This document shows positions 16,460 through 38,809 of a DNA stretch of 64,000 nucleotides, one piece after another. Positions within the stretch are counted from its first letter, which is position 1. Each line of letters starts with the position of its first letter. The stretch is from contig JAGGUP010000099.1 in NCBI GenBank assembly GCA_021158405.1, forward strand, positions 1,211 through 65,210, given 5' to 3'. The notes beneath the pieces are model-generated. The model made no database searches and was not told where the DNA came from. It saw nothing but the letters and a program-made list of their open reading frames with translations. The translations under genes were made by a program, and so were the position numbers. This DNA is from Bacteroidales bacterium. GTDB taxonomy: Bacteria; Bacteroidota; Bacteroidia; Bacteroidales; UBA12170.

Positions 16460-19400
16460 ATGAGAAAGTTACGATTCTTTGTAGCTTTTGTATTGACCCT
16501 TGGTCTATTACTAAGCACTTCTTTTACAAATGCCCAAAATATTTTCTATGTTGATGCCGAAACAACTTATCTTGTTGCTGCTAATCTTACGCCAACTCCC
16601 GTTGGAGGTGATATTATTAAGATTCGAGCCGGCAGAACGAAAACATTAAAGTTCAAAGGCTTTGAAGGAAGCAAAAACTCCCCAATCTTATTTATCAATG
16701 ATGGCGGACAAGTCAATATTAATACAGAAGCTTGGGGCGCACTAACTTTTGAAGATTGTAAATTCATAAAAGTAAGTGGAACTGGAGATCCTAATGTTCA
16801 TTATGGTTTTAAATTAACCGGATTAACCAGTGGTTTAACTTTTGGAGAATACAGCAGCGATTGCGAGGCGGAATTTATTGAAATAGAAGGTGTCCCCTCT
16901 ACATTTTTCGGCATTTATGCTAAAAAAGATTTTAGTGGAAACCCACCTACTCCCTATCCCCTTTTTAACAATTTAAGTATACACGACACCTATATTCACG
17001 ATTTGGCTGAAGGGATGTATATTGGAGAAACCATTTCTCCAGGTATGGAATTTCATCACTTAAGAATTTATAACAATATTGTTGTCAACACATTACGCGA
17101 ATCTGTACAAATCGCAAATAGTGTTGAGGATGTAGAAATATACAATAACCTATTTTTAAATGCAGGACTGGAAAATACTCCTGTACAAAACAATGGTCTT
17201 CAAATTGGATCGAATACGATTGCTAAGGTTTATAATAATATCATCATTAATTCTCCAAGCTTTGGCATCATCGTTTTGGGAAATAGAGATATAGAAATAA
17301 AAAATAACTTTATACAAAATAATGCCGGTATTTTTATTGATGATCGTTATGCTATACTTCCCTATTCTGCCAATCGGATTGAGGAGAATTTTTTCGACCA
17401 AATCAATAATGTTCAAATCATTGAAAACAGAAATGAGTTCAACGATTTATTTATATTGAATAATTCCTTTAGCACCGATATATCATTCTTTAAGAGCACT
17501 GTTGATATTGCAGGCTTGTCTGACATCTCAAATAATCAACTTGTGAGCATCCCTGATTTTCAATATTCAATAGAGAATGGCGTTTTCACGAATTCAGCTC
17601 AGAATCCCGTTAGCTATCAAACTATGGGACCTCAAAATGGATTGAGTCATGTTTTTAATGATACTCCTATTTTGCAAGCTATTGATGATGTTTTAATTGT
17701 CTGCTCAACAAATAGTACTATTCAATTAAGCGCAACTGTTAATGATCAGGATATCATCCATTTTGAAAGCCGTGATTTACCTTCATTTGTACAACTTGAG
17801 GAGTTGTCTTCCGGCAAAGCCGAACTAATTTTGAATCCTTCGCTTGAAAATAAAGGAACTTACGAATTTGGCATTCTGGTTTATGACGAAAGTCATCACG
17901 CGTATGATCGTCAGATAGTTCAACTATCTGTACAAGAAGCCGATAATCAGGTACCAGTATTGAATTTCGAAAGTCCAATAACTTTAGAAGCCGCCTCAAA
18001 ATTCCAACTAAATATTACCGCCTCGGACGCAGATAATGACCCCCTATTTTATTCGGTCAATGCACTTCCTGCATTTGCCAAAATAGTTACAAATGAGTTG
18101 GGAGAAACATTTCTGGACATTCAACCAAAAATTACGGATATTGGTCTATATCAAATGGAAGTTGTAGCCGATGATAAATTTGGTACACCGGCAACTCAAC
18201 TGTTATATTTAATGATTAGTCAACCTGTATTAAGTTCTGACAGAATACTCTACCGCGTAAACTTTGGCGGCCCTGAAATTGAAGGTGAACCTATTAACTG
18301 GGAAGTTGATCCTATAAATTCTACAGCTGTTTATTCTACAACTTTTTTTCTAAAATCAGGAAGTTGGTCGTGGACAGGAAAAAATGCCACTTCTGCACCC
18401 AATAATCTTTTTGGACCTTATCGTTATGGAACTGAAATGCATTTTGCTTTTCCTCTTTCTGCAAATGGACACTATAAAGTAAAACTATTTTTTGCAGAAA
18501 GAAGCACCGAAGTCAATGCTAATACAACGGGAACATTCAATGTATTTCTTGAAAACATTGAAGTTTTGCACGCATTTAATATTTATCAAACAGCTGGCTA
18601 CGAAGCTTTAGAACAAAGTTTTGAAGTCTTGGTTGAAGATCAACTTCTTCAGCTGGATTTCCAAAGTATGGACAACAAAGCCAAGATTAATGGTATTGAA
18701 ATCAGTTATTTGGATGAAGGAATTCAGAATCAAGCACCGAAAATACAAGCAATTGCTCCAATCATTTTAAATGAAAATGAAGTTAGTAATATTCAGGTTC
18801 CCATTTTGGATGATGCTTTTGCCTCTTGCGGATCACTTCGTTTAACAGCGGAAAATGCACCAAATTTTCTTTCCGTCAACCAAAATGCCGAAGGCGAATT
18901 TTCTCTCCATCTTCAACCTGATTATAGTGCTGCAGGAGTTTATGAAAACATCACCCTTACTGCATTTGATGGTTGTTTAGAACATTCTATTGCAATTTCC
19001 TTAACCGTTATGAACACCAATCGTTTACCTGTTTTAGAAGATATTAGTACAATTGATTTGGAAGCAGGAAGCAATTTAACTGTTGAGGTTTATGCAAATG
19101 ATGCAGATGGTGACCAACTAAATCTGCTACTTTATAGTGCTCCCGATTTTGTAAAACTAAGCGATTTTGGAAGTGGGTATGGAAACTTGAATTTTAGCCC
19201 CGATCTTACAGTTACAGGTAATTTTGCTTTTGAAATAAGAGCGGAAGATGGACAAGGAGGAAGCAGTTCTGTGCTACTAAATGTTCAAATAACACCAGCT
19301 CCAGTTACGGAACGTATTGTTCTAAATACAGCAATGATTACCGATTTAGTGGATGGAGGTTCTCGTTATAGCCCCATATATTTAGCCAATGAGCAAAGTA

Positions 19401-19990
19401 TAGATCCGTATTCAAACGATCATCCAAAAAGCAAAAGCTGGTTGCCGGCAAAACGGGTTTCTTATGGCCCTTTCCAGGCTATGATCGATTTAGGTGAAGA
19501 CTATTTTATTGATTTTGCGTTTTTGCACGATATGCAATATACGGCCAATTTCCAGATTTACGCCGGAACTCCCGATCATTGGACTGAAATAACTACTTAT
19601 GAAACCTCATCTTTTAGACGATGGAAAGAAGTAGATTTAGGTGTAACATCACGTTATTTGTTGCTTTCCATGACCAATACCATTTATGCTTATATCAATG
19701 AGATAGCACTTTATGGCTATGTTATAAACCAAATGGATAAATCAGCGATGCATTTTAATCCTGAGGATTCTCCTGAGTATTTGATCTATCCTAATCCGAC
19801 TCAGTATCAAATTAAAATTCAAGATAAAACAGAGAATCAGATCGTTGAAATAATAAACATAAACGGGAAAGTTATTCTTAAAACACAAGAAAACACTATA
19901 AATATCTCCAATCTTTCAAACGGAATTTATTTACTCAGATTATATGATTATGAAGAAGTGATTTTCCAAGATCGCTTTATCAAAAGGTAA
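16460..19990 (+). CDS. T9SS-secreted multidomain protein: beta-helix, Ig/cadherin-like repeats, malectin-like, discoidin-like, type A CTD
   Basis: Signal peptide; Asn/Ile-rich parallel beta-helix repeats; N.AP...I / DADND Ig repeats; YRVNFGG...YKVKLFFAE...FNV malectin-like domain; C-terminal IYPNPT...ISNLSNGIYLLRL CTD. Confidence 0.85.
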   Translation: MRKLRFFVAFVLTLGLLLSTSFTNAQNIFYVDAETTYLVAANLTPTPVGGDIIKIRAGRTKTLKFKGFEGSKNSPILFINDGGQVNINTEAWGALTFEDCKFIKVSGTGDPNVHYGFKLTGLTSGLTFGEYSSDCEAEFIEIEGVPSTFFGIYAKKDFSGNPPTPYPLFNNLSIHDTYIHDLAEGMYIGETISPGMEFHHLRIYNNIVVNTLRESVQIANSVEDVEIYNNLFLNAGLENTPVQNNGLQIGSNTIAKVYNNIIINSPSFGIIVLGNRDIEIKNNFIQNNAGIFIDDRYAILPYSANRIEENFFDQINNVQIIENRNEFNDLFILNNSFSTDISFFKSTVDIAGLSDISNNQLVSIPDFQYSIENGVFTNSAQNPVSYQTMGPQNGLSHVFNDTPILQAIDDVLIVCSTNSTIQLSATVNDQDIIHFESRDLPSFVQLEELSSGKAELILNPSLENKGTYEFGILVYDESHHAYDRQIVQLSVQEADNQVPVLNFESPITLEAASKFQLNITASDADNDPLFYSVNALPAFAKIVTNELGETFLDIQPKITDIGLYQMEVVADDKFGTPATQLLYLMISQPVLSSDRILYRVNFGGPEIEGEPINWEVDPINSTAVYSTTFFLKSGSWSWTGKNATSAPNNLFGPYRYGTEMHFAFPLSANGHYKVKLFFAERSTEVNANTTGTFNVFLENIEVLHAFNIYQTAGYEALEQSFEVLVEDQLLQLDFQSMDNKAKINGIEISYLDEGIQNQAPKIQAIAPIILNENEVSNIQVPILDDAFASCGSLRLTAENAPNFLSVNQNAEGEFSLHLQPDYSAAGVYENITLTAFDGCLEHSIAISLTVMNTNRLPVLEDISTIDLEAGSNLTVEVYANDADGDQLNLLLYSAPDFVKLSDFGSGYGNLNFSPDLTVTGNFAFEIRAEDGQGGSSSVLLNVQITPAPVTERIVLNTAMITDLVDGGSRYSPIYLANEQSIDPYSNDHPKSKSWLPAKRVSYGPFQAMIDLGEDYFIDFAFLHDMQYTANFQIYAGTPDHWTEITTYETSSFRRWKEVDLGVTSRYLLLSMTNTIYAYINEIALYGYVINQMDKSAMHFNPEDSPEYLIYPNPTQYQIKIQDKTENQIVEIININGKVILKTQENTINISNLSNGIYLLRLYDYEEVIFQDRFIKR

Positions 19991-23150: not shown

Positions 23151-23224
23151 GGTCCAGTAGCTCAGTTGGATAGAGCAGCAGCCTTCTAAGCTGCGGGTCG
23201 TGGGTTCGAATCCCGCCTGGATCA
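23151..23224 (+). tRNA. tRNA-Arg (anticodon TCT)
   Basis: Cloverleaf: GGTCCAG acceptor pairing with CTGGATC, D arm GCTC/GAGC, anticodon arm GCAGC-CTTCTAA-GCTGC, T loop TTCGAAT. CCA is not encoded. Confidence 0.97.
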
Positions 23225-23262: not shown

Positions 23263-26200
23263 TTAATTCAGATACTTTCCAATCATTTCTGTAAATAACG
23301 TTTTATCAATAGGCTTTGAAATATAATCATCACAACCTACATCCAATGCTTTTCTCCTGTCGCCAGAAATAGCATAAGCAGTTTGGGCTATGACTTTAAG
23401 ATTCGGCTTTATCTTTTTTATCTCGATGGTAGCATCATATCCATTCATTTCCGGCATATTAATATCCATGAGTACCAAATCAATATCCGACCTCAGCTTA
23501 CACACTTGAATAGCTTCTCTACCACTTTTAGCCCAAATTGTATTTATGCCCAATCGCCCAAGCACTATTTTTAAAAATTCAAAACTAGCTTCATCATCTT
23601 CAACAACCAAAACCGTTTTCTTGTCGAATTTACTTATTTTAATGCTTTCTATTTGTTCTGTTTTTTCTTCTATTGTATACCTTTCATTTGGGATGGTAAA
23701 ATAAAATATGGATCCACTTCGATTATTCTCTGAATCTGATTCCACCCAAAGTTCTCCACCTAAAAGTTCCGCCAGTTTTTTCGAAATGGACAAACCGATG
23801 CCTGTTCCGCCATAAACGCGTGTATGCGATTCTTCCACTTGCCTAAACATCTCAAATATAAGGCTTTGTTTGTCTTTCGGAATTCCAATACCAGTATCTT
23901 CAACAAAAAATTTAAGCATCGATCTTCCCTCTATCGATTCTACAGTAAACCCATAATTCACCTGTCCTTCATGGGTAAACTTAAGCGCATTTTTTAACAG
24001 GTTAATCAGTATTTGTTTAAACTTTGATGAATCGGTATAAATTATCAATTGTTCATAATCAGACGGCAGAATTTGATTAATGGCAATATTCCCCTTATCG
24101 ATATTCAGTTGCTCTATCTTTATGATTTCATCAATATTTCTTAGAATTGATTTTAATCTTTCTTCTTTTTTCTCAATTTGTATTTCGCCTGTCTCAATAA
24201 GAGTGATATCGAAAATATCTTCTACAATATCAAGTAGGTGCAAACCACTCGAATTAATCGTTTTATTAAACTCTAAAATCTCATCCAGAGGCACATCTTT
24301 ATCAATAATTTCTGAAAATCCGATAATGGCATTAAGAGGAGTCCGCAATTCATGAGACATAGTAGTTAGGAAAGTCGATTTCAAACGGTCAGATTCTTTT
24401 GCCATTTCAAGAGCACTTATCAAGTCTTGTTCTGCTTTTTTTCTACTAATTGCAAGGCCAATAGATTGAGAAACAAATTCAAGTATTTCCAAGTCATTTA
24501 AATTATATGCTTTTTCATCATCATAACTTTGCACTACAATGGCACCAGTTACTTTACCATTTAAAATCATTGGCACTCCAAGCCAAATTTCAGAATCTGA
24601 CCCAAAAGATTCAATCTTTCCACTTGCTTCCAATTCTGCCAATACTTCTTTAGTAGCAAATAGCGGTTTCTTTGTTTTTATTACATAACTAGTCAACGAT
24701 TTACCGGCAGGAAAAGAAGTGAAATTATCTTTTTTATCCGCCATATAAGGTAATAAAATAGTATTGGTTTCTTCCTCATAGATAGCAACAAAAAAATTAG
24801 TCGTATCGATTAGAGTTCCCAATCCTTCGCGGATAATGCTGATCAACTCATCCAAATTATCTGTTAGATTTACAGCAAACGCAATTTTATAGATAACCTT
24901 TTGCATTTTAGCCGTTCGTGTACGCTCAGTAATATCATTTGCAATGGATAAGATTCCATATTGTCCATTGGGAAGCATCACTTTTGTTTCGTACAACTCC
25001 ACATTTCTCAAGCTGCCATCTTTGGCTATATTTACAACTTCATGTTTAAGCGTTTTCCCATGCAATAAAGCCTGATAATTAATTTCTATTTCCCCTTCTT
25101 CGTTTGCCAGAATACTTACATTTTTATTTTGTAATTCTGCTGGTGTATATCCATTGTATTTGCAAAACGAATCATTGATATCCAGAATTATTCCATCCGT
25201 ATCCAAAACTACAATTCCACTGGGCGATAAATCGAAAAGTGCCTTATAATATTGTTCCCTGAGTAATAATTTCTCTTGCATTTTTTTATTTTCACTGATA
25301 TCTTTTACAGTTCCAAAAGCAACGGCTTTATTTTCATAAATGATACGGTCAATCGTCATATTTACATACACTTGTGTGACTCCATCTTTATGTAAAGCTC
25401 TAAATTCAAAATTATTAATCGGAGCCCCCCCCTTCATTCTTCTGATATAGTTGCCTAATACCATTTTCCAATCTTCCGGAGCTATAATTTTCTTGAAATC
25501 CATTCCGAAAACATCTTCTTTGGTATATCCAATAATGGAGGCAAAAGCTTCATTTACAAATAAAATTTTCTTCTCATTTATAATGAACACTCCATCTTGA
25601 ATATTCTCAATCAAGGTGCGGTATTTCTCTTCCGATTCTTTTAATAATAATGCAGCATTTTTCGTCTCCGAAATATCTTCGATTGTTCCTTCGTAATAAA
25701 TTATTTTTCCGGCTGAATCATAAAAAGCCTTGGCATTTTCACGAACAAAAACTGTTTCATTATTTTTTATTTTCCAACTTGATTCATGCCCTTTTAAATA
25801 TCCGGTACGATTAATCAATTCAAGAATCTTGGTTCTAGAAGTATCGGTATATAAACTATCTTCCGCCAAATTACGTTGAGTTAATTCATCAAGATCCCGA
25901 TACCCAAGCATAGCTACGAGTGCAGGATTTGCTAAAATGATTTTACCTTCGGGAGTAGTTCGATAAAACCCAATGGAAGTATTCTCAAACAAAACCCTGA
26001 AATGTTCTTCACTTTTTTTTAATTCATCTTCGGCTAACTTACGCTTGGTTATATCGTGGTTAATTGACAAACTTGCCACTTCACCCTTAAACTCAATGGG
26101 AGTAACTATTACTTCTGTCCAAAACTCAGTGCCATCTTTCCTCCTTTTCTTCTCGGTGGTGGTCACCATTTTTCCGGCAAACAACTTTTCATTCCAATCA

Positions 26201-26934
26201 CTGATATCAATTTCTCCCGTTCCTGCAATAGCCAAGTCATCAATAATATTCATTTGCAAGAGTTCCACTCTCGAATAACCTGTTTGCCTTACAGCCGCCG
26301 AATTCACTTCAACGATTTCGCCCATATTTGTTTTGCCAATTCGCGTAACAAATACAGCATCTCCAAGGTCGTCGAATAAACGTCTAAATCTTTCCTTGCT
26401 TTGTTTAAGTTCTTTTTCTGCTTTTTTACGATCCGTGATATCGCGCCAAACGGTATGAAGAACTTTATTGTCTTCCTCGTTTTCAATAACCGTTAATAAC
26501 ACTTCAACCGGGAAAATTTCTCCGTCTGCTTTTTTATGATTCCATTCAAATCGATAGCTCCCATGCTTAAAAGCAATTTCTATCATTTTGGCTTCCTTGC
26601 TTATGGACAATTGCCCGTCTTCTTGTTTTTCAGGCGATAAATCTGACGGATGCTTATTTAGAAATTCATTCTTACTATGATAACGGAGCATTTTTATGGT
26701 AGCATTATTACAGTCAACAAATATTCCATTTTGCAAAACTAAAATAGCGTCTTTTGATTTCTCGAATAAACCCTTATACTTTTTTGCGTTTTCCTGTAAT
26801 TCCTTATTTACTTGTGGAATAGCCTGTTCTGAATATTGTCGAGCACTTTCAGACTTTTCAAATCTGGCAATTTGAGCTTTTAAAAGGTCTATTTCTTCAA
26901 GAAGTTGTTCTTTTGTTTTGTCTTTGTTTTGCAT
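23263..26934 (-). CDS. Soluble hybrid sensor histidine kinase (about 5 PAS, GAF, HisKA, HATPase, REC)
   Basis: Repeated PAS/PAC ends (DITDRKKAE, DITKRKLAE, DITERTR), H-box SHELRTPLN, N/G boxes, receiver VLVVEDD...LMDINMP...K. No TM segment is seen. Confidence 0.93.
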   Translation of the reverse strand: MQNKDKTKEQLLEEIDLLKAQIARFEKSESARQYSEQAIPQVNKELQENAKKYKGLFEKSKDAILVLQNGIFVDCNNATIKMLRYHSKNEFLNKHPSDLSPEKQEDGQLSISKEAKMIEIAFKHGSYRFEWNHKKADGEIFPVEVLLTVIENEEDNKVLHTVWRDITDRKKAEKELKQSKERFRRLFDDLGDAVFVTRIGKTNMGEIVEVNSAAVRQTGYSRVELLQMNIIDDLAIAGTGEIDISDWNEKLFAGKMVTTTEKKRRKDGTEFWTEVIVTPIEFKGEVASLSINHDITKRKLAEDELKKSEEHFRVLFENTSIGFYRTTPEGKIILANPALVAMLGYRDLDELTQRNLAEDSLYTDTSRTKILELINRTGYLKGHESSWKIKNNETVFVRENAKAFYDSAGKIIYYEGTIEDISETKNAALLLKESEEKYRTLIENIQDGVFIINEKKILFVNEAFASIIGYTKEDVFGMDFKKIIAPEDWKMVLGNYIRRMKGGAPINNFEFRALHKDGVTQVYVNMTIDRIIYENKAVAFGTVKDISENKKMQEKLLLREQYYKALFDLSPSGIVVLDTDGIILDINDSFCKYNGYTPAELQNKNVSILANEEGEIEINYQALLHGKTLKHEVVNIAKDGSLRNVELYETKVMLPNGQYGILSIANDITERTRTAKMQKVIYKIAFAVNLTDNLDELISIIREGLGTLIDTTNFFVAIYEEETNTILLPYMADKKDNFTSFPAGKSLTSYVIKTKKPLFATKEVLAELEASGKIESFGSDSEIWLGVPMILNGKVTGAIVVQSYDDEKAYNLNDLEILEFVSQSIGLAISRKKAEQDLISALEMAKESDRLKSTFLTTMSHELRTPLNAIIGFSEIIDKDVPLDEILEFNKTINSSGLHLLDIVEDIFDITLIETGEIQIEKKEERLKSILRNIDEIIKIEQLNIDKGNIAINQILPSDYEQLIIYTDSSKFKQILINLLKNALKFTHEGQVNYGFTVESIEGRSMLKFFVEDTGIGIPKDKQSLIFEMFRQVEESHTRVYGGTGIGLSISKKLAELLGGELWVESDSENNRSGSIFYFTIPNERYTIEEKTEQIESIKISKFDKKTVLVVEDDEASFEFLKIVLGRLGINTIWAKSGREAIQVCKLRSDIDLVLMDINMPEMNGYDATIEIKKIKPNLKVIAQTAYAISGDRRKALDVGCDDYISKPIDKTLFTEMIGKYLN

Positions 26935-30937: not shown

Positions 30938-32299
30938 ATGACATTTGAAAATTTAGGGCTTATTGAGCCCATCCTAAAAGCCCTCGAAGCAGAAGGCTAT
31001 AAATATCCCACCCCTATTCAAGAACAATCAATCCCAATACTTTTAAAAGGAAAAGATTTATTAGGTTGCGCCCAAACAGGAACTGGAAAAACAGCAGCTT
31101 TTGCTATTCCGATACTTCAGCATTTATATAAAAATAAAACTTCTGATAAAGGTCGTCGCAAGATTAAAGCGCTAGTTGTAACTCCAACACGGGAATTAGC
31201 CATACAAATTGGCGAAAGTTTTACTACTTACGGAAAATTCACAGGAATTAAAAATACCGTTATTTTTGGTGGGGTAAAACAATTGACACAAACACAAGCT
31301 CTTCAAAGAGGAGTTGATGTTTTGGTTGCAACTCCAGGAAGACTTTTAGACCTGATTGATCAGGGATACATTTCATTAAGAGACGTTGAATATTCTGTAT
31401 TGGATGAAGCCGACCATATGTTGGATATGGGTTTTATCCACGATATTAAAAAAATCATCGCAAAACTTCCTTCAAAAAGACAATCATTATTCTTTTCAGC
31501 CACCATGCCTACAGAAATTATTGCGCTATCAAGTAAGATTCTTGGTAATCCTGAAAAAGTGACTATAAATCCAGAGCAAACCACAGCAGAAAAGGTAGAG
31601 CAGGCGGTTTATTTTGTTAGTAAAGGCAATAAACCCAAACTCTTAACGCACCTTTTACAAACGGAAGTTTTCGGATCTGTTTTAGTCTTTTCTCGGACAA
31701 AACACGGAGCCGATCGGATTGTTAAATTATTGGGAAAAGCCAATATCAAAGCAGCGGCTATCCACGGAAACAAATCTCAAGCATCAAGACAAAGGGCTTT
31801 AGAAAATTTTAAAAATGGCGAAGTAAGTATTTTGATTGCTACCGATATTGCAGCTCGCGGTATCGATGTTGAAGAATTATCTTACGTAATCAATTACGAT
31901 TTACCCAATATCTCAGAAACTTATATTCACCGTATCGGTCGAACAGGTCGGGCAAGCTTAAGCGGAGTTGCATTATCCTTCTGTGATGGAGAAGAAAGGC
32001 CTTATTTAAAAGATATCCAAAAACTAATTGGTAAGGAAGTTCCTGTTATAACAGATCAGCCTTATGAAGATGATGGCACTTTTATACCATCTAAGAAAAA
32101 TTCAAGATCTCAACAAAGACCACAAAGCAGATCAGGACGGCCAGAAAGAAGTGGCGGTGGACGAAGTAGTAGCGGACGAAATGCTGGAAGTAGTAGAAAC
32201 AAATCGAGTGCTAGCGGACGAAGTGCGAGAGGCCATAGAAGTACCGGAAGTACTAGTCAATCGAAACCTCGTAGGTCTTTTTCAAAAAAATCAAATTAA
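30938..32299 (+). CDS. rhlE: DEAD-box RNA helicase, RhlE-like
   Basis: [21 protein letters not shown] and HRIGRTGRA motifs, with a basic Ser/Arg-rich tail. Confidence 0.85.
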
Positions 32300-33627: not shown

Positions 33628-33828
33628 TTAATCGCCTTCTTCCAACTCAAAAATATCGTTGACGGTTTTATCGAAAATAAGAGCAATTTTTAAAGCCAAT
33701 ATCGTAGACAAATTATATTTACCCAGTTCTATTGCATTGATTGTCTGACGACTAACATTTGCCAATTCCGCCAGACGAGCCTGAGTGATATTCTTTTTAG
33801 CCCTTTCTACTTTAATACTATTTTTCAT
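33628..33828 (-). CDS. Small XRE/Cro-C1 HTH transcriptional regulator
   Basis: ITQARLAELANVSRQTINAIELGKYN helix-turn-helix, 66 aa. Confidence 0.9.
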   Translation of the reverse strand: MKNSIKVERAKKNITQARLAELANVSRQTINAIELGKYNLSTILALKIALIFDKTVNDIFELEEGD

Positions 33829-34294
33829 AATCCAATGTCTTCCTTGATTTATAAAGTGCCCAATTGTACCGAATAATAAAAAAGATAAGGACTGTAAACA
33901 TATTGAATACCATTACCCAGAAAAAACTCATATTATACACAAAAATTAAAGCGAGAATTAAAATGGCATAATTTACATAAGTGGCCCAAACCAATGATTC
34001 AAGTCTGATTTTGGAAATAAATTCATCTTCAGTTTTTTCTTTTGAAAAAGCAATAAAAATGGCACTGACAATAATTAGGATCCCAATAATCTCATCTACA
34101 ATATTGTTTTCGACAATTACAAAAAACTGAACACTATCTGAAAATTTTTCATTAAATAATGCAATTGTTTTGATATCGAAAGCTGTGGGTTCAAACTCAA
34201 AAATTACCCACAATAAACCTAATATCACAACCGGAATAAAAATTATCCAACCTATTCTTTTAAATCGATTGGGAAGTAAGAAATTTGTTTTCAT
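33818..34294 (-). CDS. Four-TM membrane protein overlapping the XRE gene
   Basis: Hydrophobic segments with a central FSKEKTEDEFISKIRLES motif. Overlaps the XRE start by 11 bp. Confidence 0.85.
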   Translation of the reverse strand: MKTNFLLPNRFKRIGWIIFIPVVILGLLWVIFEFEPTAFDIKTIALFNEKFSDSVQFFVIVENNIVDEIIGILIIVSAIFIAFSKEKTEDEFISKIRLESLVWATYVNYAILILALIFVYNMSFFWVMVFNMFTVLIFFIIRYNWALYKSRKTLDYEK

Positions 34295-34363: not shown

Positions 34364-34614
34364 TTAGACGGCTTTGTTTGACATTATTCTTAAAATAATT
34401 GTTTCCTACTTTTGAAATTCACTTTTAAATTAAACAAGGACCGTACTGATTTTTCGATCATAACACACAATCCATCGACTTAAAAGAATGATCCTCAGAA
34501 CAATTATTTAACAAAAGACTTGCTATAACGCTTATATTTTTCTATATTGCTGCAATTTAGAGAATTAAGGTATTTTCATTTATCCGAAATTTTAATTTTT
34601 AGAAGGAAATAATT

Positions 34615-34902
34615 ATGAATCAAGCACAGTTAATACGGAATCTTGCGTTACGCATAGGCCAAACGCAAGTCGACACAAAACAGTTAATGAAAAGTTCCCT
34701 AGAAATTATTGTCGATATACTTGATCAGGACATTCCTGTCTCTATTCCCAGATTAGGAACTTTTTATACAGTCACCAATAAAAAAAGGAAAGCCTACAGC
34801 CCGTTTCACAAACAAGAAATGATATTACCTCCAAAGCGGGTCATTCGATTTCGACCTAGTTCTTTTATTAAGGCTGAAATAAACTCTAAACCGGTCGAGT
34901 GA
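34615..34902 (+). CDS. HU/IHF family DNA-binding protein (divergent)
   Basis: MNQAQLI helix, VSIPRLGTF, arm-tip Pro (AYSPFHK), VIRFRPS. Confidence 0.85.
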   Translation: MNQAQLIRNLALRIGQTQVDTKQLMKSSLEIIVDILDQDIPVSIPRLGTFYTVTNKKRKAYSPFHKQEMILPPKRVIRFRPSSFIKAEINSKPVE

Positions 34903-35987
34903 TGAAAGATAAACTGACATTTGCAAACCTAGTGGATAAGATTGCTTCCGAAACCGGTACAACAAAAAAACTGGTGCGTGATCTTTTAAAAGAAATGGTT
35001 GTTTTAAACAAGGAGAACCTTGTTAAAGATGGGAAGAATAACTTTCCCGATTTCGGAAGTCTATCTGTGAAATGGCATAAAGCAAAATTGGTTCGCAATC
35101 CTTCGAGTGGAGAAATCAATACTGTACCAGCTCATGCAGCGATAAACTTCAAAGCTCAAAATTCTATAGGTGAACATATTAACCGTGCATATTCCCATCT
35201 CCACCCTGAGCTAATAAAAATAGAGCCCATGGAAGGAAAAGAAAATCCTCCATTTATTCCTGTGATAGAAAAAGAGACTTTGAAAACTATTGAAGAAGTC
35301 CCTGTAAAAGAAAATAAAAAGGATGTGTTTATTCCTATTCAAGAAGTTTCAAAGAGAAATCCGCCTCCTCCTGAAAAAGAAGAAAAAAGTCACACTAGTA
35401 GATGGTGGCTCTTTTTATTTTTGCTTGCCCTCTTTCTTGTTTTTATATTCTGGCCTACCTCAAATTCAAAGAACGAAATACAATCTCCAAAGAAAGAAAC
35501 CCAAAACAATGTACCTAAAAAAACAAATTCGTCTATTGAAAATCAAGCTCCTGCAATCCAAACCCAAGAACTTATTGTTCAGAAAGATATTGCAAGAACA
35601 CCCTCACAAAAAATTAGTGTCGAAAAGGGAGAATATTATTATACTATTGCCAAAAAATATTACCACAAAGAAGCCCTTTGGCCACTCATTTATTATGCAA
35701 ACTATGTACAAGCCGAAAATCCGGATTTTCTACAGGTTGGTAGAGAAATCATCATCCCGGCATTGCAGGGTATTCCGGAAAATTTATCTGTACAAGATAA
35801 AAAAGAATTGGCACAAGCTTATGTGGAAATCTATCTTGTTTACAATCCCATCAACCACATAAAAGCAATGAGTTATCTATGGACGGCCAATCAACTGGAT
35901 ACGGAGTTATTGAAAGTTAATCGTAATCGCATTTCTGAAAAGGATGTGCAAACGATGAAGAGCATTAAAGGTAAATTGAAATATTAG
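34899..35987 (+). CDS. HU-domain, TM, LysM fusion protein
   Basis: N-terminal HU domain (FPDFGSL...RNPSSGE...INFKA), Pro/Glu linker, TM RWWLFLFLLALFLVFIFWP, LysM VEKGEYYYTIAKKYY...WPLIYYAN...NPDFLQVGREIIIP. Confidence 0.85.
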   Translation: MMKDKLTFANLVDKIASETGTTKKLVRDLLKEMVVLNKENLVKDGKNNFPDFGSLSVKWHKAKLVRNPSSGEINTVPAHAAINFKAQNSIGEHINRAYSHLHPELIKIEPMEGKENPPFIPVIEKETLKTIEEVPVKENKKDVFIPIQEVSKRNPPPPEKEEKSHTSRWWLFLFLLALFLVFIFWPTSNSKNEIQSPKKETQNNVPKKTNSSIENQAPAIQTQELIVQKDIARTPSQKISVEKGEYYYTIAKKYYHKEALWPLIYYANYVQAENPDFLQVGREIIIPALQGIPENLSVQDKKELAQAYVEIYLVYNPINHIKAMSYLWTANQLDTELLKVNRNRISEKDVQTMKSIKGKLKY

Positions 35988-36014: not shown

Positions 36015-36413
36015 TCAAATAAAACTGGACACTTTCGATTCCATCAAATATTTTTTAAAATCGTTAGTTAATTTATGGATAATTCCACCCATAATACATT
36101 TTTCAAAAGGGCAAATGGGTCGATCCAATGGACAGTCTTGCAATTCGATAGGTCCTTCTATCGCATAATAAATATCATAGAGTGTAATTTCGCTTGCGGG
36201 TCTTTTTAGTATAAATCCACCTGCAGGGCCTCGTGTCGAGCTAAGTAAATTGGTTTTTACCAAACGCTGCATCACCTTCGCTAAATGATTTTTACTGGAA
36301 GCTGTTGCAGTTGCTATCTGATTTACATTAACAAGTTTGTCGCTTCCTGCAATTAATATTACTGCATGTACTGCAAGTGAAGAAGCTTCGGATAAAGTGA
36401 CAACTTTTGCCAT
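36015..36413 (-). CDS. Rrf2 family transcriptional regulator
   Basis: STRGPAGGF wing and C-terminal C-x6-C-x4-C. Confidence 0.9.
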   Translation of the reverse strand: MAKVVTLSEASSLAVHAVILIAGSDKLVNVNQIATATASSKNHLAKVMQRLVKTNLLSSTRGPAGGFILKRPASEITLYDIYYAIEGPIELQDCPLDRPICPFEKCIMGGIIHKLTNDFKKYLMESKVSSFI

Positions 36414-36544: not shown

Positions 36545-38809
36545 TTATGAATTTTGAAGCTTAATCAAATTTAAAGCACTTCCTGCTTTAAACCAATCGA
36601 TTTGATTTTGATTGTAGGTATGATTGGCAAGTATTTCATCTTTAGAACCATCTGCATGGTTGATCACAATTGTAAGTTGTTTTCCAGGAGCAAAGTCTTT
36701 CAATCCAACAACATCAAAAAGATCATCTTCACGAACCAAATCGTAATCAGCTTTATTTGCAAAGGTCAAACCAAGCATTCCTTGTTTTTTGAGGTTAGTT
36801 TCGTGAATACGGGCAAATGAACGTACTAATACAACTTTCACGCCCAAATTACGAGGTTCCATAGCTGCGTGTTCACGACTTGAACCTTCCCCATAATTTT
36901 CATCACCGATAACAATAGAACCCATTCCGGCTTCTTTATAAGCACGAGCTGTAGCAGGAACTTCTCCTTTTTTACCAGTTAATTGGTTTACAACTTCATT
37001 GGTAGCTTCACCAAAATAATTTACAGCACCAATCAACATATTATTTGAAATATTATCGAGGTGACCACGATAGCGTAACCAAGGTCCAGCCATAGAAATA
37101 TGGTCAGTAGTACATTTTCCTTTCGCTTTGATAAGCAATTTCATTCCTTTATAATCTTTGCCATCCCAAACATTGAAAGGAGTCAAAAGTTGTAAACGAT
37201 CAGAAGATGGGCTTACAGAAATTTTGATTCCACTTCCGTCAACAGCTGGAGCTACAAAGCCATTATCTTTTACAGCATAACCTTTTTTAGGCAAAGCATC
37301 ACCTGTGGGCTCTTCTAACATCACTTCAATACCTTCTCTATTTATTAACTTATCTTTCAAAGGATTGAAACGCATATCGCCGGCAATTGTCATAGCGGTA
37401 ACCATTTCGGGAGAAGCAACAAAAGCATAGGTATTAGGATTACCATCAGCACGCTTAACAAAGTTGCGGTTAAACGAATGGATGATCGCATTTTTTTCTT
37501 GTTTTTCAGCACCTTTGCGAGCCCATTGACCAATACAAGGACCACAAGCGTTGGCTAAAACTGTTCCTCCAATACTTTCGAATATAGAAACAAATCCATC
37601 ACGAGCAACGGTATAACGCACTTGTTCAGAGCCGGGAGTAATACGAAATTCTGCTTTTACTTCTAAATTTTTATCGGCAGCCTGCTTGGCAATAGAAGCA
37701 GCACGACTAATGTCTTCGTATGAAGAGTTTGTACATGAACCTATCAAACCAACTTCCATTTTTGTAGGCCATCCGTTTTCTTCTACTGCTTTTGCAAACT
37801 CAGAAATTGGGGTTGCACGATCAGGAGTAAAAGGACCATTCAAATGTGGTTCTAATTCATCTAAATTAATTTCCACAATTTCGTCATAATATTTTTCAGG
37901 ATTAGTATATACTTCATCATCTGCTCTCAAGTAGGCAGCCATTTTGTCGGCTTCTTTAGCTACATCGGCACGATCGGTAGCGCGAAGGTATTCAGCCATT
38001 TTTGGTCCGTAAGCAAAAATAGAAGTCGTTGCTCCTACTTCGGCACCCATATTACATATCGTTCCTTTTCCGGTACAAGAAATTGAATCAGCACCTTCTC
38101 CAAAATATTCAACAATAGCTCCTGTTCCTCCTTTTACAGTAAGGATACCGGCCACTTTTAATATCACATCTTTAGGAGCTGTCCAACCACTTAATTTACC
38201 AATCAATTTAATACCTATTAATTTAGGAAATTTAAGTTCCCAAGCCATACCCGCCATCACGTCAACAGCATCAGCACCACCAACACCAATAGCAACCATA
38301 CCTAAACCACCGGCATTAACCGTATGAGAATCAGTTCCTATCATCATTCCGCCAGGAAAAGCATAATTTTCTAAAACAATCTGATGAATAATACCTGCGC
38401 CCGGTTTCCAAAAACCTAGTCCGTATTTATTTGATACTGAACCTAAAAAATCATACACTTCTTTATTGGTTATTTCAGCAGTAGCCAAATCTTCATTAGC
38501 ACCAATTTTGGCTTGAATGAGATGATCGCAATGAACAGTAGAAGGAACTGCAACTTTACTTTTTCCGGCTTGAATAAACTGCAGCAGAGCCATTTGAGCA
38601 GTAGCATCTTGCATAGCTACACGGTCGGGATTAAAATCAACATAAGATTCTCCCCGTTTATGTGTTTGAGTTGGAACTCCCTCATCTAGATGAGAATAAA
38701 GCACTTTTTCTGTATAGGTCAGAGGTCTTCCAACCAATTTGCGAGCAGCATCCACGCGTTCTGCCATACGGGCATATACGCCCTTAATCATATCAATATC
38801 GTATGCCAT
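36545..38809 (-). CDS. acnA: Aconitate hydratase (mitochondrial-like clade)
   Basis: [27 protein letters not shown] cluster ligands, TTDHIS and GSSREHAA. Confidence 0.93.

Follow-up and report, generated by a model that had tools for sequence, protein, structure and literature searches.

Proteins in which a single HU domain is followed by a disordered region, a transmembrane (TM) segment and a LysM domain were described by Burroughs, Kaur, Zhang & Aravind in 2017, who predicted that they share a two-gene operon with a free-standing HU protein and proposed, from comparative genomics, a heterodimer tethering the nucleoid to the envelope (PMC5499826). [quoted passage not shown] Noc and RacA-DivIVA were cited as parallels (PMC5499826). 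A literature search found no experimental test or follow-up of the tether hypothesis. The pair analysed here consists of a free HU protein, HU1, and a long protein, HU2-TM-LysM, whose HU domain is referred to as HU2. The preliminary description of this DNA had implied that the coupled soluble partner was new, but PMC5499826 had already set out the operon, a heterodimer and the tethering of the nucleoid to the envelope, and the pair and its interpretation as a tether have stood as a computational hypothesis since 2017. What is added here is full-length, basic, classical arms on both HU domains, a distinctive arm motif in HU1, a helical tail without a structural match and a periplasmic spacer of narrowly constrained length.

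The bacterial HU-CCDC81 clade has an architecture identical to that of the long protein (HU/disordered/TM/LysM), the same operon and the same bias towards the bacteroidetes lineage. The present pair differs from it in that the HU domains are about 90-97 residues long, with gapless arms and 6-10 K+R in the clasp, and in that it is the anchored HU that carries the classical RNP arm and the free HU the modified one. The helical extension that follows the LysM domain here is absent from the main text of PMC5499826. PF18175 was matched by 14/44 HU2 members, the best at 29.2 bits (P0018) and so below the cutoff of 35, and HU1 members matched PF18174 (4/10) and PF18175 (6/10), all below cutoffs. Treating HU1 and HU2 as the HU-CCDC81_bac_1 and bac_2 domains, which would have provided a Rosetta stone for the heterodimer, was rejected as HU1 members match both models weakly.

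IHF, an alpha/beta heterodimer, also comprises two divergent paralogues of the HU/IHF fold, as do HU1 and HU2, which are likely to act together, and in both systems the arm is full-length and keeps a Pro where the kink is induced. The best NCBIfam matches of HU1 and HU2 were IHF-alpha models at about 34 and 28 bits, far below the equivalog cutoffs of 111-120 bits (NF001401, TIGR00987, NF001222, TIGR00988). A split of HU1 and HU2 into IHF alpha and beta was abandoned, both being nearest to IHF-alpha. The pair differs from IHF in having no clean alpha/beta assignment, in that one subunit is predicted to be anchored in membrane and wall and in the overlap of its two neighbouring genes.

HubP, FimV and TsaP are likewise bitopic, with a periplasmic LysM anchor and other parts that organise a cellular machine, and HubP anchors the origin region of the chromosome at the pole through ParA1. 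In these proteins, however, a signal sequence is followed by an N-terminal LysM and the cytoplasmic part comes at the C-terminus, the reverse of the order in HU2-TM-LysM; they have no DNA-binding HU domain, their contact with DNA is indirect and their homology to the long protein is confined to LysM. Noc and RacA-DivIVA of Bacillus offer a functional analogy, as a DNA-binding protein brings chromosomal DNA to the envelope, but their folds are unrelated (ParB-like and MerR-like), attachment is by an amphipathic helix or a partner and there is no contact with the wall. FtsN, DamX and DedD resemble the long protein in their N-in single pass, disordered linkers and C-terminal peptidoglycan-binding domain, whereas their cytoplasmic tails are short and lack a DNA-binding fold and their SPOR domain, unlike LysM, is targeted to septal denuded glycans.

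The features of the pair, as located within the window (the whole 64,000-nucleotide stretch of DNA that was analysed), are collected in Table 1. The sequence around the HU1/HU2 junction is GTGATGA, in which the long reading frame could open at either of two codons. All homologues of the long protein start MK.K and a database protein identical to HU2-TM-LysM (P0001) is 361 aa long, which makes it almost certain that translation begins at the ATG (34902) and not at the GTG. Of the reading frames first described, the 95-aa HU1 and the overlap were borne out, whereas the 362-aa product of the GTG start has to be replaced by one of 361 aa from the ATG. Ahead of HU1 a CTTG (34519-34522) is followed, after a gap of ~20 nt, by the conserved block TCTATATTGCTGCAATTTA (34541-34559). 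The TTATATTGCTGCGAATTA block and the upstream TTG are kept in 6/7 syntenic loci, about 55-75 nt ahead of the HU1 ATG. A sigma-70-like scan also picks out 34520-34548, and the strict Bacteroidota promoter TTTG-N17-23-TAnnTTTG had no match upstream of HU1. A promoter role for this region is probable, judging by the sequence.

Table 1. Features of the HU1/HU2-TM-LysM gene pair, with nucleotide positions in the window and residues of the long protein
Feature	Residues	Position	Strand	Basis or remark
Probable promoter region of two-gene operon		34519..34559	+	Conserved block, syntenic loci
HU1		34615..34902	+	Free HU/IHF-fold protein, 95 aa; PF00216 6.6e-17
HU2-TM-LysM long ORF		34899 (GTG) or 34902 (ATG) to 35987	+	ORF listing
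TGATG stop/start junction		34900..34904	+	HU1 TGA and HU2 ATG, one base in common
HU domain of long protein, classical R-N-P arm	1-97	34902..35192	+	PF00216 4.6e-14
Cytoplasmic disordered Glu/Pro/Lys-rich linker (predicted)	98-166	35193..35399	+	pLDDT 49-68
Single transmembrane helix, N-in/C-out (predicted)	167-185	35400..35456	+	Hydrophobic peak, family charge bias
Periplasmic polar spacer (predicted)	186-232	35457..35597	+	pLDDT 43-55
LysM domain	233-290	35598..35771	+	Family profile, predicted fold
Four-helix C-terminal extension (predicted) and stop codon	291-361	35772..35987	+	Packed on LysM, AF2

Profile searches placed both HU domains firmly in PF00216, which was matched by 10/10 HU1 members and 44/44 HU2 members; against a cutoff of 22.4 bits HU1 scored 62.0 and HU2 52.9, the match in the long protein covering residues 8-94. 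The AF2 model of the HU2 domain (pLDDT about 90) has helices at 7-18, 22-43 and 87-97 together with five strands. Its best Foldseek match was the Anabaena HU-DNA structure 1p71 (TM 0.76 normalised to the target), and the matches to 1p71, IHF and Hbb had target-normalised TM values of 0.72-0.78. HU1 is also predicted to have the HU fold: it aligns without gaps to T. maritima HU over 89 residues and, again without gaps, to IHF-alpha, with the arm Pro kept. The RNP arm of HU2 is intact, as first noted, since VRNPSSGE aligns gap-free with GRNPKTGE of a solved HU. The arm of HU1 reads KKRKAYSPFHKQ...PPKRVIRFRPS, in which KAYSP lines up with KGVNP and PGRNP; the Pro is thus retained and R-N is replaced by Y/F-S/N. 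This motif is strongly conserved across the HU1 type as [KQ]-x-[RQ]-K-[SA]-[FY]-[SN]-P ... PPKR. The HU1 and HU2 domains are only about 20% identical, as against 41-69% within the HU1 type, and by sequence comparison HU1 is an orthologous lineage separate from HU2. Counted from the beginning of the arm strands up to the domain's end, K+R number 10 in HU1 and 6 in HU2, with 8 in the family consensus. Both domains have what appear to be full-length, basic, classical arms of the DNA-binding type and look competent to bind DNA.

The only hydrophobic segment of the long protein is RWWLFLFLLALFLVFIFWP at residues 167-185, modelled by AF2 as a helix from 167 to 183, and one such peak is found in 44/44 family members. 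No signal-peptide-like stretch was found at the N-terminus of the long protein, in agreement with the single TM segment without a cleavable signal that had been proposed. Mean K+R counts beside the TM segment are 4.45 on the N side vs 1.73 on the C side, the N side being higher in 40/44 members, and the expected topology, with a cytoplasmic HU domain and a periplasmic LysM, is upheld by this bias and by the single segment. A caveat that must be applied to the window protein is that its own flanks are neutral (3 vs 3), and its orientation is therefore deduced from the family bias together with the lack of a signal peptide. The cytoplasmic linker contains 13 Glu, 11 Pro and 10 Lys in 69 residues and is highly variable in length in the family (median 98, range 12-315), whereas the periplasmic spacer varies little in length (median 53, interquartile range 46-63). 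A constrained spacer beside a free linker fits a spacer spanning a fixed distance from membrane to wall. A Pfam KASH match on the TM segment (E 0.18) was set aside as compositional.

LysM is a general binder of GlcNAc glycans. In the window protein alone the domain scored 17.5 bits with the Pfam model PF01476, under the threshold of 20.9, but PF01476 was matched by 29/44 family members (best 8.4e-10) and the NCBIfam model PRK11198 LysM by 40/44. The family profile also found the solved LysM domains of Kbp/YgaU (2.4e-9), Ecp6 (6.2e-9) and TsaP (2.4e-7). A beta-alpha-alpha-beta fold is predicted, with strands at 236-239 and 282-285 and helices at 246-254 and 257-266, and the model superposes on Kbp, Ecp6, CtCBM50 and a CIS-baseplate LysM with rmsd values of 0.9-2.7 A over about 52-55 residues. 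The LysM domain that had been recognised at the outset, although sub-threshold in the window protein, is confirmed at the level of the family by the profile, and is supported by the predicted fold. Kbp (YgaU), a BON-LysM protein, has the solved LysM nearest in sequence and one of the nearest in structure (rmsd 0.9-1.9 A), and the signature N-P-D...G-x-x-L-x-I-P is common to the two LysM domains; Kbp has neither a TM segment nor an HU domain. Kbp is cytoplasmic and senses K+, from which it follows that the LysM fold is no guarantee of peptidoglycan binding.

The helical tail noted earlier is also borne out, as four helices (297-314, 319-332, 336-339 and 346-353) are modelled with pLDDT >90. In the model of the C-terminal module (pTM 0.87) the tail is packed onto LysM, where it might alter or occlude the glycan groove. 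The motifs LS/T-x-x-D-x3-IA-x-GY-x-x-VYL-x-YK and YLWVA are conserved in the tail. No Pfam, PDB-sequence or Foldseek match covered it, and Foldseek rows for GH9, a bromodomain and a J-domain were discarded as weak (rmsd >9 A or probability <0.4). A word-index search with the C-terminal module returned generic LysM proteins only and was uninformative on other N-terminal partners.

The check on co-occurrence proposed with the preliminary description gave a uniform result. In 25/25 distinct loci, retrieved starting from either partner and drawn from Bacteroidia MAGs, Balneolaceae and KSB1, a HU1-type gene lies directly 5' of the long gene, with gaps from -8 to +3 nt (-8, -4, -1, +1, +2 or +3 nt in the loci other than that of the window). 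The genes flanking the pair are unrelated between loci. Recurrence of the two-gene arrangement in 25 independent loci is far beyond chance, and HU1 + HU2-TM-LysM is a self-contained two-gene module. Among species-representative genomes the long gene was directly downstream of 14/14 HU1-type genes found, with none alone, as expected of a free HU that is a dedicated, coupled partner. A single-sequence pattern search of species-representative genomes gave no matches; the 44-member alignment was too divergent for designing patterns and smaller alignments served instead. Every upstream HU was matched better by the HU1 profile than by that of HU2, and the HU1 and HU2 lineages have therefore been inherited together. 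The pair is also present in cultured organisms, these being Rhodohalobacter species (R. barkolensis and R. halophilus).

The reading that we favour, with moderate confidence, is that of a two-gene operon for an envelope-anchored DNA-binding complex of the HU/IHF type, in which HU1:HU2 pairing couples DNA to the sacculus. HU1 would be a soluble HU-fold protein and the long protein a bitopic protein of the inner membrane with a flexible acidic/proline linker behind its N-terminal HU domain, the two being made in about equal amounts through translational coupling. Their HU folds would pair, probably as a HU1:HU2 heterodimer, to give a body that clamps DNA on the cytoplasmic side of the inner membrane, while the LysM module would hold the other end on peptidoglycan. 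Chromosomal DNA would thereby be coupled to the sacculus, with a role in nucleoid positioning or segregation. The analysis establishes the gene structure, the domain folds, the topology bias, the strict conservation of the pair and its tight coupling; we infer from these that the two proteins heterodimerise, that they bind DNA and peptidoglycan and what they do in the cell, the heterodimer itself being plausible. The sole two-HU protein among 257 family representatives is a HU2-HU2 tandem, and this HU2-HU2-TM-LysM variant (two samples) retains HU1 upstream. It fits poorly with a simple obligatory 1:1 HU1:HU2 dimer, as the retention of HU1 suggests that HU2 domains may pair mutually and that HU1 may act separately.

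HU-fold proteins commonly homodimerise, and HU2 homodimers would put two membrane chains in each DNA-binding body, leaving HU1 as a separate soluble homodimeric factor that might be, for example, architectural or regulatory, preparing the DNA site or autoregulating the operon; the tether could still hold. This arrangement, which we consider unlikely, would accommodate HU1 upstream of the tandem variant, the lack of any natural HU1-HU2 fusion among the 257 representatives (0/257) and the strong difference in arm motif between HU1 (Y/F-S/N-P) and HU2 (R-N-P). The constancy of the association speaks against it, however, since no HU1-type gene was found apart from HU2 (14/14) and the stop/start overlap suggests stoichiometric co-production, both of which would be more usual for subunits of a single complex. 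The heterodimer was also the form favoured in the published analysis (PMC5499826).

A more specific form of the heterodimer, which is distinctly unlikely, would have HU1:HU2 act as a site-specific IHF-like heterodimer that pins one locus, e.g. the origin or terminus, to the sacculus through the spacer of fixed length. The non-canonical HU1 arm would give specificity and the LysM-plus-four-helix module would be dedicated to recognition of the wall or a partner. If this were true, it would be a direct bacterial bridge from chromatin to wall, conceptually LINC-like, in Bacteroidota/Balneolota-group lineages.

The strongly conserved HU1 arm, suggestive of IHF-like site-specific recognition, would also suit one-component trans-membrane signalling of the ToxR/CadC kind in place of a passive tether. 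The LysM-plus-helical module would then sense the state of peptidoglycan or muropeptides and change how the cytoplasmic HU domain is clustered or proteolytically released, with an effect on DNA architecture and transcription at specific sites. Membrane-bound transcription regulators have the same bitopic layout, the conserved family-specific tail, having no structural match, could bind a ligand or partner, and weak matches to CadC and anti-sigma NCBIfam models were found in a few members. These matches are, however, marginal (E about 1e-3 to 1e-4, in 1-2/44 members) and fall within stretches of low complexity or the TM segment; HU/IHF folds are architectural and not classical regulators, no protease, kinase or sigma factor is associated with the pair and the flanks vary among loci. 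Signalling of this kind is very unlikely. Highly improbable is a LysM-anchored divisome or envelope scaffold similar to FtsN/DamX, in which the HU folds would serve protein-protein contacts: SPOR proteins are likewise bitopic and N-in and end in a wall-binding domain, protein-protein roles were proposed for the two-HU HU-CCDC81 relatives (PMC5499826) and HU-CCDC81 models are matched below threshold, but both HU arms are full-length and basic with a conserved Pro, unlike HU-CCDC81, the HU domains score best as classical PF00216 or IHF-like, and no division genes consistently adjoin the pair across the loci compared, ZapA and RNase Y lying ~5 kb off in Bacteroidia loci only.

If the reading of HU1 and HU2-TM-LysM as an envelope-anchored tether is right, two genes would suffice for a protein link that runs directly from the chromosome to the cell wall across the inner membrane, which could explain nucleoid positioning or segregation in bacteria of the Bacteroidota group, where these have been little studied. 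The tether is now easier to test, the pair being strictly conserved, self-contained and present in cultured Rhodohalobacter, with two HU domains that look fit to bind DNA. The observations best placed to discriminate are the HU2 tandem, the narrow range of periplasmic spacer lengths and the helical cap that covers LysM and is so far uncharacterised. One further feature of the genomic context is that an aconitase gene lies next to the pair in R. barkolensis as well as in the Bacteroidia loci; the pair was found at 0/80 other aconitase loci of Bacteroidota, and the adjacency is taken as residual synteny or coincidence.

Both open reading frames of the preliminary description were present: HU1, and the long gene encoding an HU domain (HU2), a transmembrane helix and a LysM domain. 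A family search, exhaustive over 1.84 billion cluster representatives, found 1884 matches with E<=1e-3, of which 416 reached 1e-10 or lower and 67 reached 1e-30 or lower; many of the matches span the whole length. Named members came from Rhodohalobacter species and Balneolaceae and were annotated 'HU family DNA-binding protein' or 'LysM domain-containing protein'. The nearest genome relatives (31-40% identity, full length) were in MAGs labelled Bacteroidales, Draconibacterium and Bacteroidetes. A 92-101-aa HU gene lay directly upstream of the long gene in 25/25 distinct readable loci (the window; L001-L003; Rhodohalobacter barkolensis L006, L007, a JGI contig; L008-L011; L047; ten more from an HU1-based search; and the distant members L129-L131). 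The HU1-based search found the long gene downstream in all 14 matches and HU1 never alone, which supports the free HU as a dedicated partner. The HU1 stop and the long-gene start were separated by -8, -4, -1, +1, +2 or +3 nt. Genes flanking the pair vary between lineages, so the conserved unit is the pair itself.

Three near-alike 334-aa long proteins (L041, L042, L043), each with an HU1 gene at an 8-nt overlap, came from MAGs labelled Desulfobacteraceae, Desulfobacterales and Planctomycetota, in which they sit on short contigs, reflecting either mis-binning or lateral transfer beyond the Bacteroidota/Balneolota group. Aconitase adjoins the pair downstream, after the Rrf2 gene, in Bacteroidia loci and also upstream and divergent in R. 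barkolensis; no HU pair was found near aconitase in 80 other Bacteroidota aconitase loci. The window aconitase shares 74-77% identity with its counterparts in Bacteroidales MAGs and in Carboxylicivirga.

In the window the operon consists of HU1 and the long gene and nothing else, with a GC content of 36.1% against 34.9% for the window. The 362-aa length first described, which would correspond to a GTG start at 34899, did not hold: all homologues begin with MK.K and P0001, a database protein identical to the long protein, has 361 aa, so that the true start is almost certainly the ATG, giving a 1-nt TGATG overlap with the HU1 stop (GTCGAG TGA TGA AAG). The block TCTATATTGCTGCAATTTA, ~55-75 nt upstream of HU1, and a TTG ~20 nt before it are common to 6/7 syntenic loci and are likely to be the operon's promoter. 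The block runs past a -7-like TATATTG element, and its GCTGCGAATTA part might serve as an operator or 5'-UTR element. Upstream lies a divergent gene pair that encodes a 158-aa multi-pass membrane protein without matches in Pfam and, with an 11-nt overlap, a 66-aa Xre-type HTH_3 regulator; the pair recurs upstream of the operon in L002-L005.

Features of the HU operon, its products and their surroundings
Feature	Position	Strand	Remarks
HU1	34615-34902	+	ORF, 95 aa
HU1 stop	34900-34902	+	TGA
Long gene	34902-35987	+	361 aa; ATG 34902-34904
HU fold	residues 1-97		pLDDT ~90 (AlphaFold2)
Cytoplasmic linker	residues 98-166		disordered (AlphaFold2)
TM	residues 167-183		single helix (AlphaFold2)
Periplasmic spacer	residues 186-232		disordered (AlphaFold2)
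Compact C-terminal domain	residues 233-355		pLDDT 91-98 (AlphaFold2)
Four-helix extension	35772-35984 (aa 291-361)	+	packed on LysM
Putative promoter block	34541-34559	+	TCTATATTGCTGCAATTTA
Gene upstream of HU1	33818-34294	-	divergent
Membrane-protein/HTH_3 pair	33628-34294	-	divergent
Rrf2 regulator	36015-36413	-	convergent
Aconitase, window	36545-38809	-
Aconitase, L006	2569-4527	-	R. barkolensis
Tandem-HU2 gene (P0018)	L047 4001-5794; L048 4001-5794
DEAD-box helicase	30938-32299	+
Malectin/Ig protein	16460-19990	+	1176 aa
tRNA gene	23151-23224	+
Hybrid sensor kinase	23263-26934	-	1223 aa

The domain architecture was examined by profile searches and an AlphaFold2 model of the full long protein from a 44-sequence alignment (mean pLDDT 80.7). 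Both proteins matched PF00216 (HU1 6.6e-17, long protein 4.6e-14), and Foldseek placed the N-domain of the long protein on HU/IHF structures, including the Anabaena HU-DNA complex 1p71 (target-normalised TM 0.76), IHF and Hbb. The HU2 arm KLVRNPSSGE aligns gaplessly with RTGRNPKTGE of a solved HU; that of HU1 (RKAYSP...PPKRVIRFRP) aligns gaplessly with T. maritima HU and IHF-alpha, retaining the proline with R-N swapped for Y/F-S/N. From the arm strands to the domain end HU1 has 10 K+R and HU2 six. With such full-length, basic, proline-keeping arms both domains look competent to bind DNA.

The last 134 residues, modelled separately (pLDDT 93.6, pTM 0.87), formed beta-alpha-alpha-beta followed by four helices, in agreement with the LysM and helical tail described earlier. 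Alone, the LysM of the window protein scored 17.5 bits, below the Pfam threshold of 20.9, but 29/44 family members matched (best 8.4e-10) and the family profile found the solved LysM sequences of Kbp (2.4e-9), Ecp6 (6.2e-9) and TsaP (2.4e-7). Structural relatives (Foldseek) covered the LysM part only: Kbp, Ecp6, CtCBM50 with GlcNAc3 and contractile-injection baseplate LysM domains (rmsd 0.9-2.7 A, ~53 residues). The helical tail, conserved family-wide with the motifs D-x3-IA-x-GY-x-x-VYL-x-YK and YLWVA, had no relatives in Pfam, PDB sequences or the fold search and may be an undescribed LysM-associated module.

All 44 members have a single hydrophobic peak, with a mean of 4.45 K+R in the 15 residues before it and 1.73 after, the N side being higher in 40/44; the window protein alone is neutral (3 vs 3). 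This family bias, with no N-terminal signal sequence in the long protein, places HU on the cytoplasmic and LysM on the periplasmic side, a predicted topology that agrees with the one first proposed. Both disordered segments are Glu/Pro/Ser/Thr-rich. Among 227 complete members the cytoplasmic linker varied greatly in length (median 98 residues, IQR 67-128, range 12-315), whereas the periplasmic spacer was narrow (median 53, IQR 46-63), which would fit a need to bridge a fixed membrane-to-wall distance.

HU folds require a partner. Together with the strict co-occurrence, the stop/start overlap and the absence of solitary HU1 genes, this makes the predicted HU1:HU2 heterodimer plausible. Identity is ~20% between the HU1 and HU2 domains and 41-69% within the HU1 type, and upstream HUs always score better with the HU1 than the HU2 profile; the two are distinct paralogous lineages passed on jointly. 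Against or neutral to a heterodimer are P0018, a 597-aa protein from two independent samples with two HU2-type domains in tandem before TM and LysM, divided by an extremely acidic linker of ~120 residues, where HU1 is nevertheless kept 3 nt upstream; the lack of any HU1-HU2 fusion among 257 representatives; and the failure to find a clean mapping of HU1/HU2 onto IHF alpha/beta or HU-CCDC81 domains 1/2.

The coupled soluble partner had been implied to be new. However, bacterial HU joined to a disordered segment, TM and extracellular SPOR or LysM was described by Burroughs, Kaur, Zhang and Aravind (Cell Cycle 2017; PMC5499826), who already put forward the hypothesis of a heterodimeric nucleoid-to-envelope tether with its stand-alone HU partner. 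No experimental follow-up was found in the literature searched. The present pair resembles the published system in architecture, operon and predicted mechanism, but the HU-CCDC81 clade of that paper is marked by truncated arms with few basic residues, whereas both HU domains here are full-length, basic and classical. The clade's Pfam models gave sub-threshold matches only and the pair falls outside the clade by its sequence features; it may be a classical-like basal branch or a sister fusion. The tether interpretation is reasonable and partly supported, in that domains, topology and dedicated partnership hold, its mechanistic core being a prediction. New here are the strictness of pairing, the classical arms of both HUs together with the distinctive arm of HU1, the helices capping LysM, the narrow length range of the periplasmic spacer and the tandem-HU2 variant, and cultured Rhodohalobacter species offer experimental entry points.

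Elsewhere in the window, the 1176-aa protein combines Malectin with bacterial Ig domains and ends in a T9SS sorting domain, which marks the organism as a member of the Bacteroidota with type IX secretion. The DEAD-box helicase ends in ~80 residues highly enriched in Ser, Arg and Gly, and the tRNA gene lies next to the hybrid sensor kinase, which has five PAS domains, one GAF domain, HisKA/HATPase and a receiver domain.
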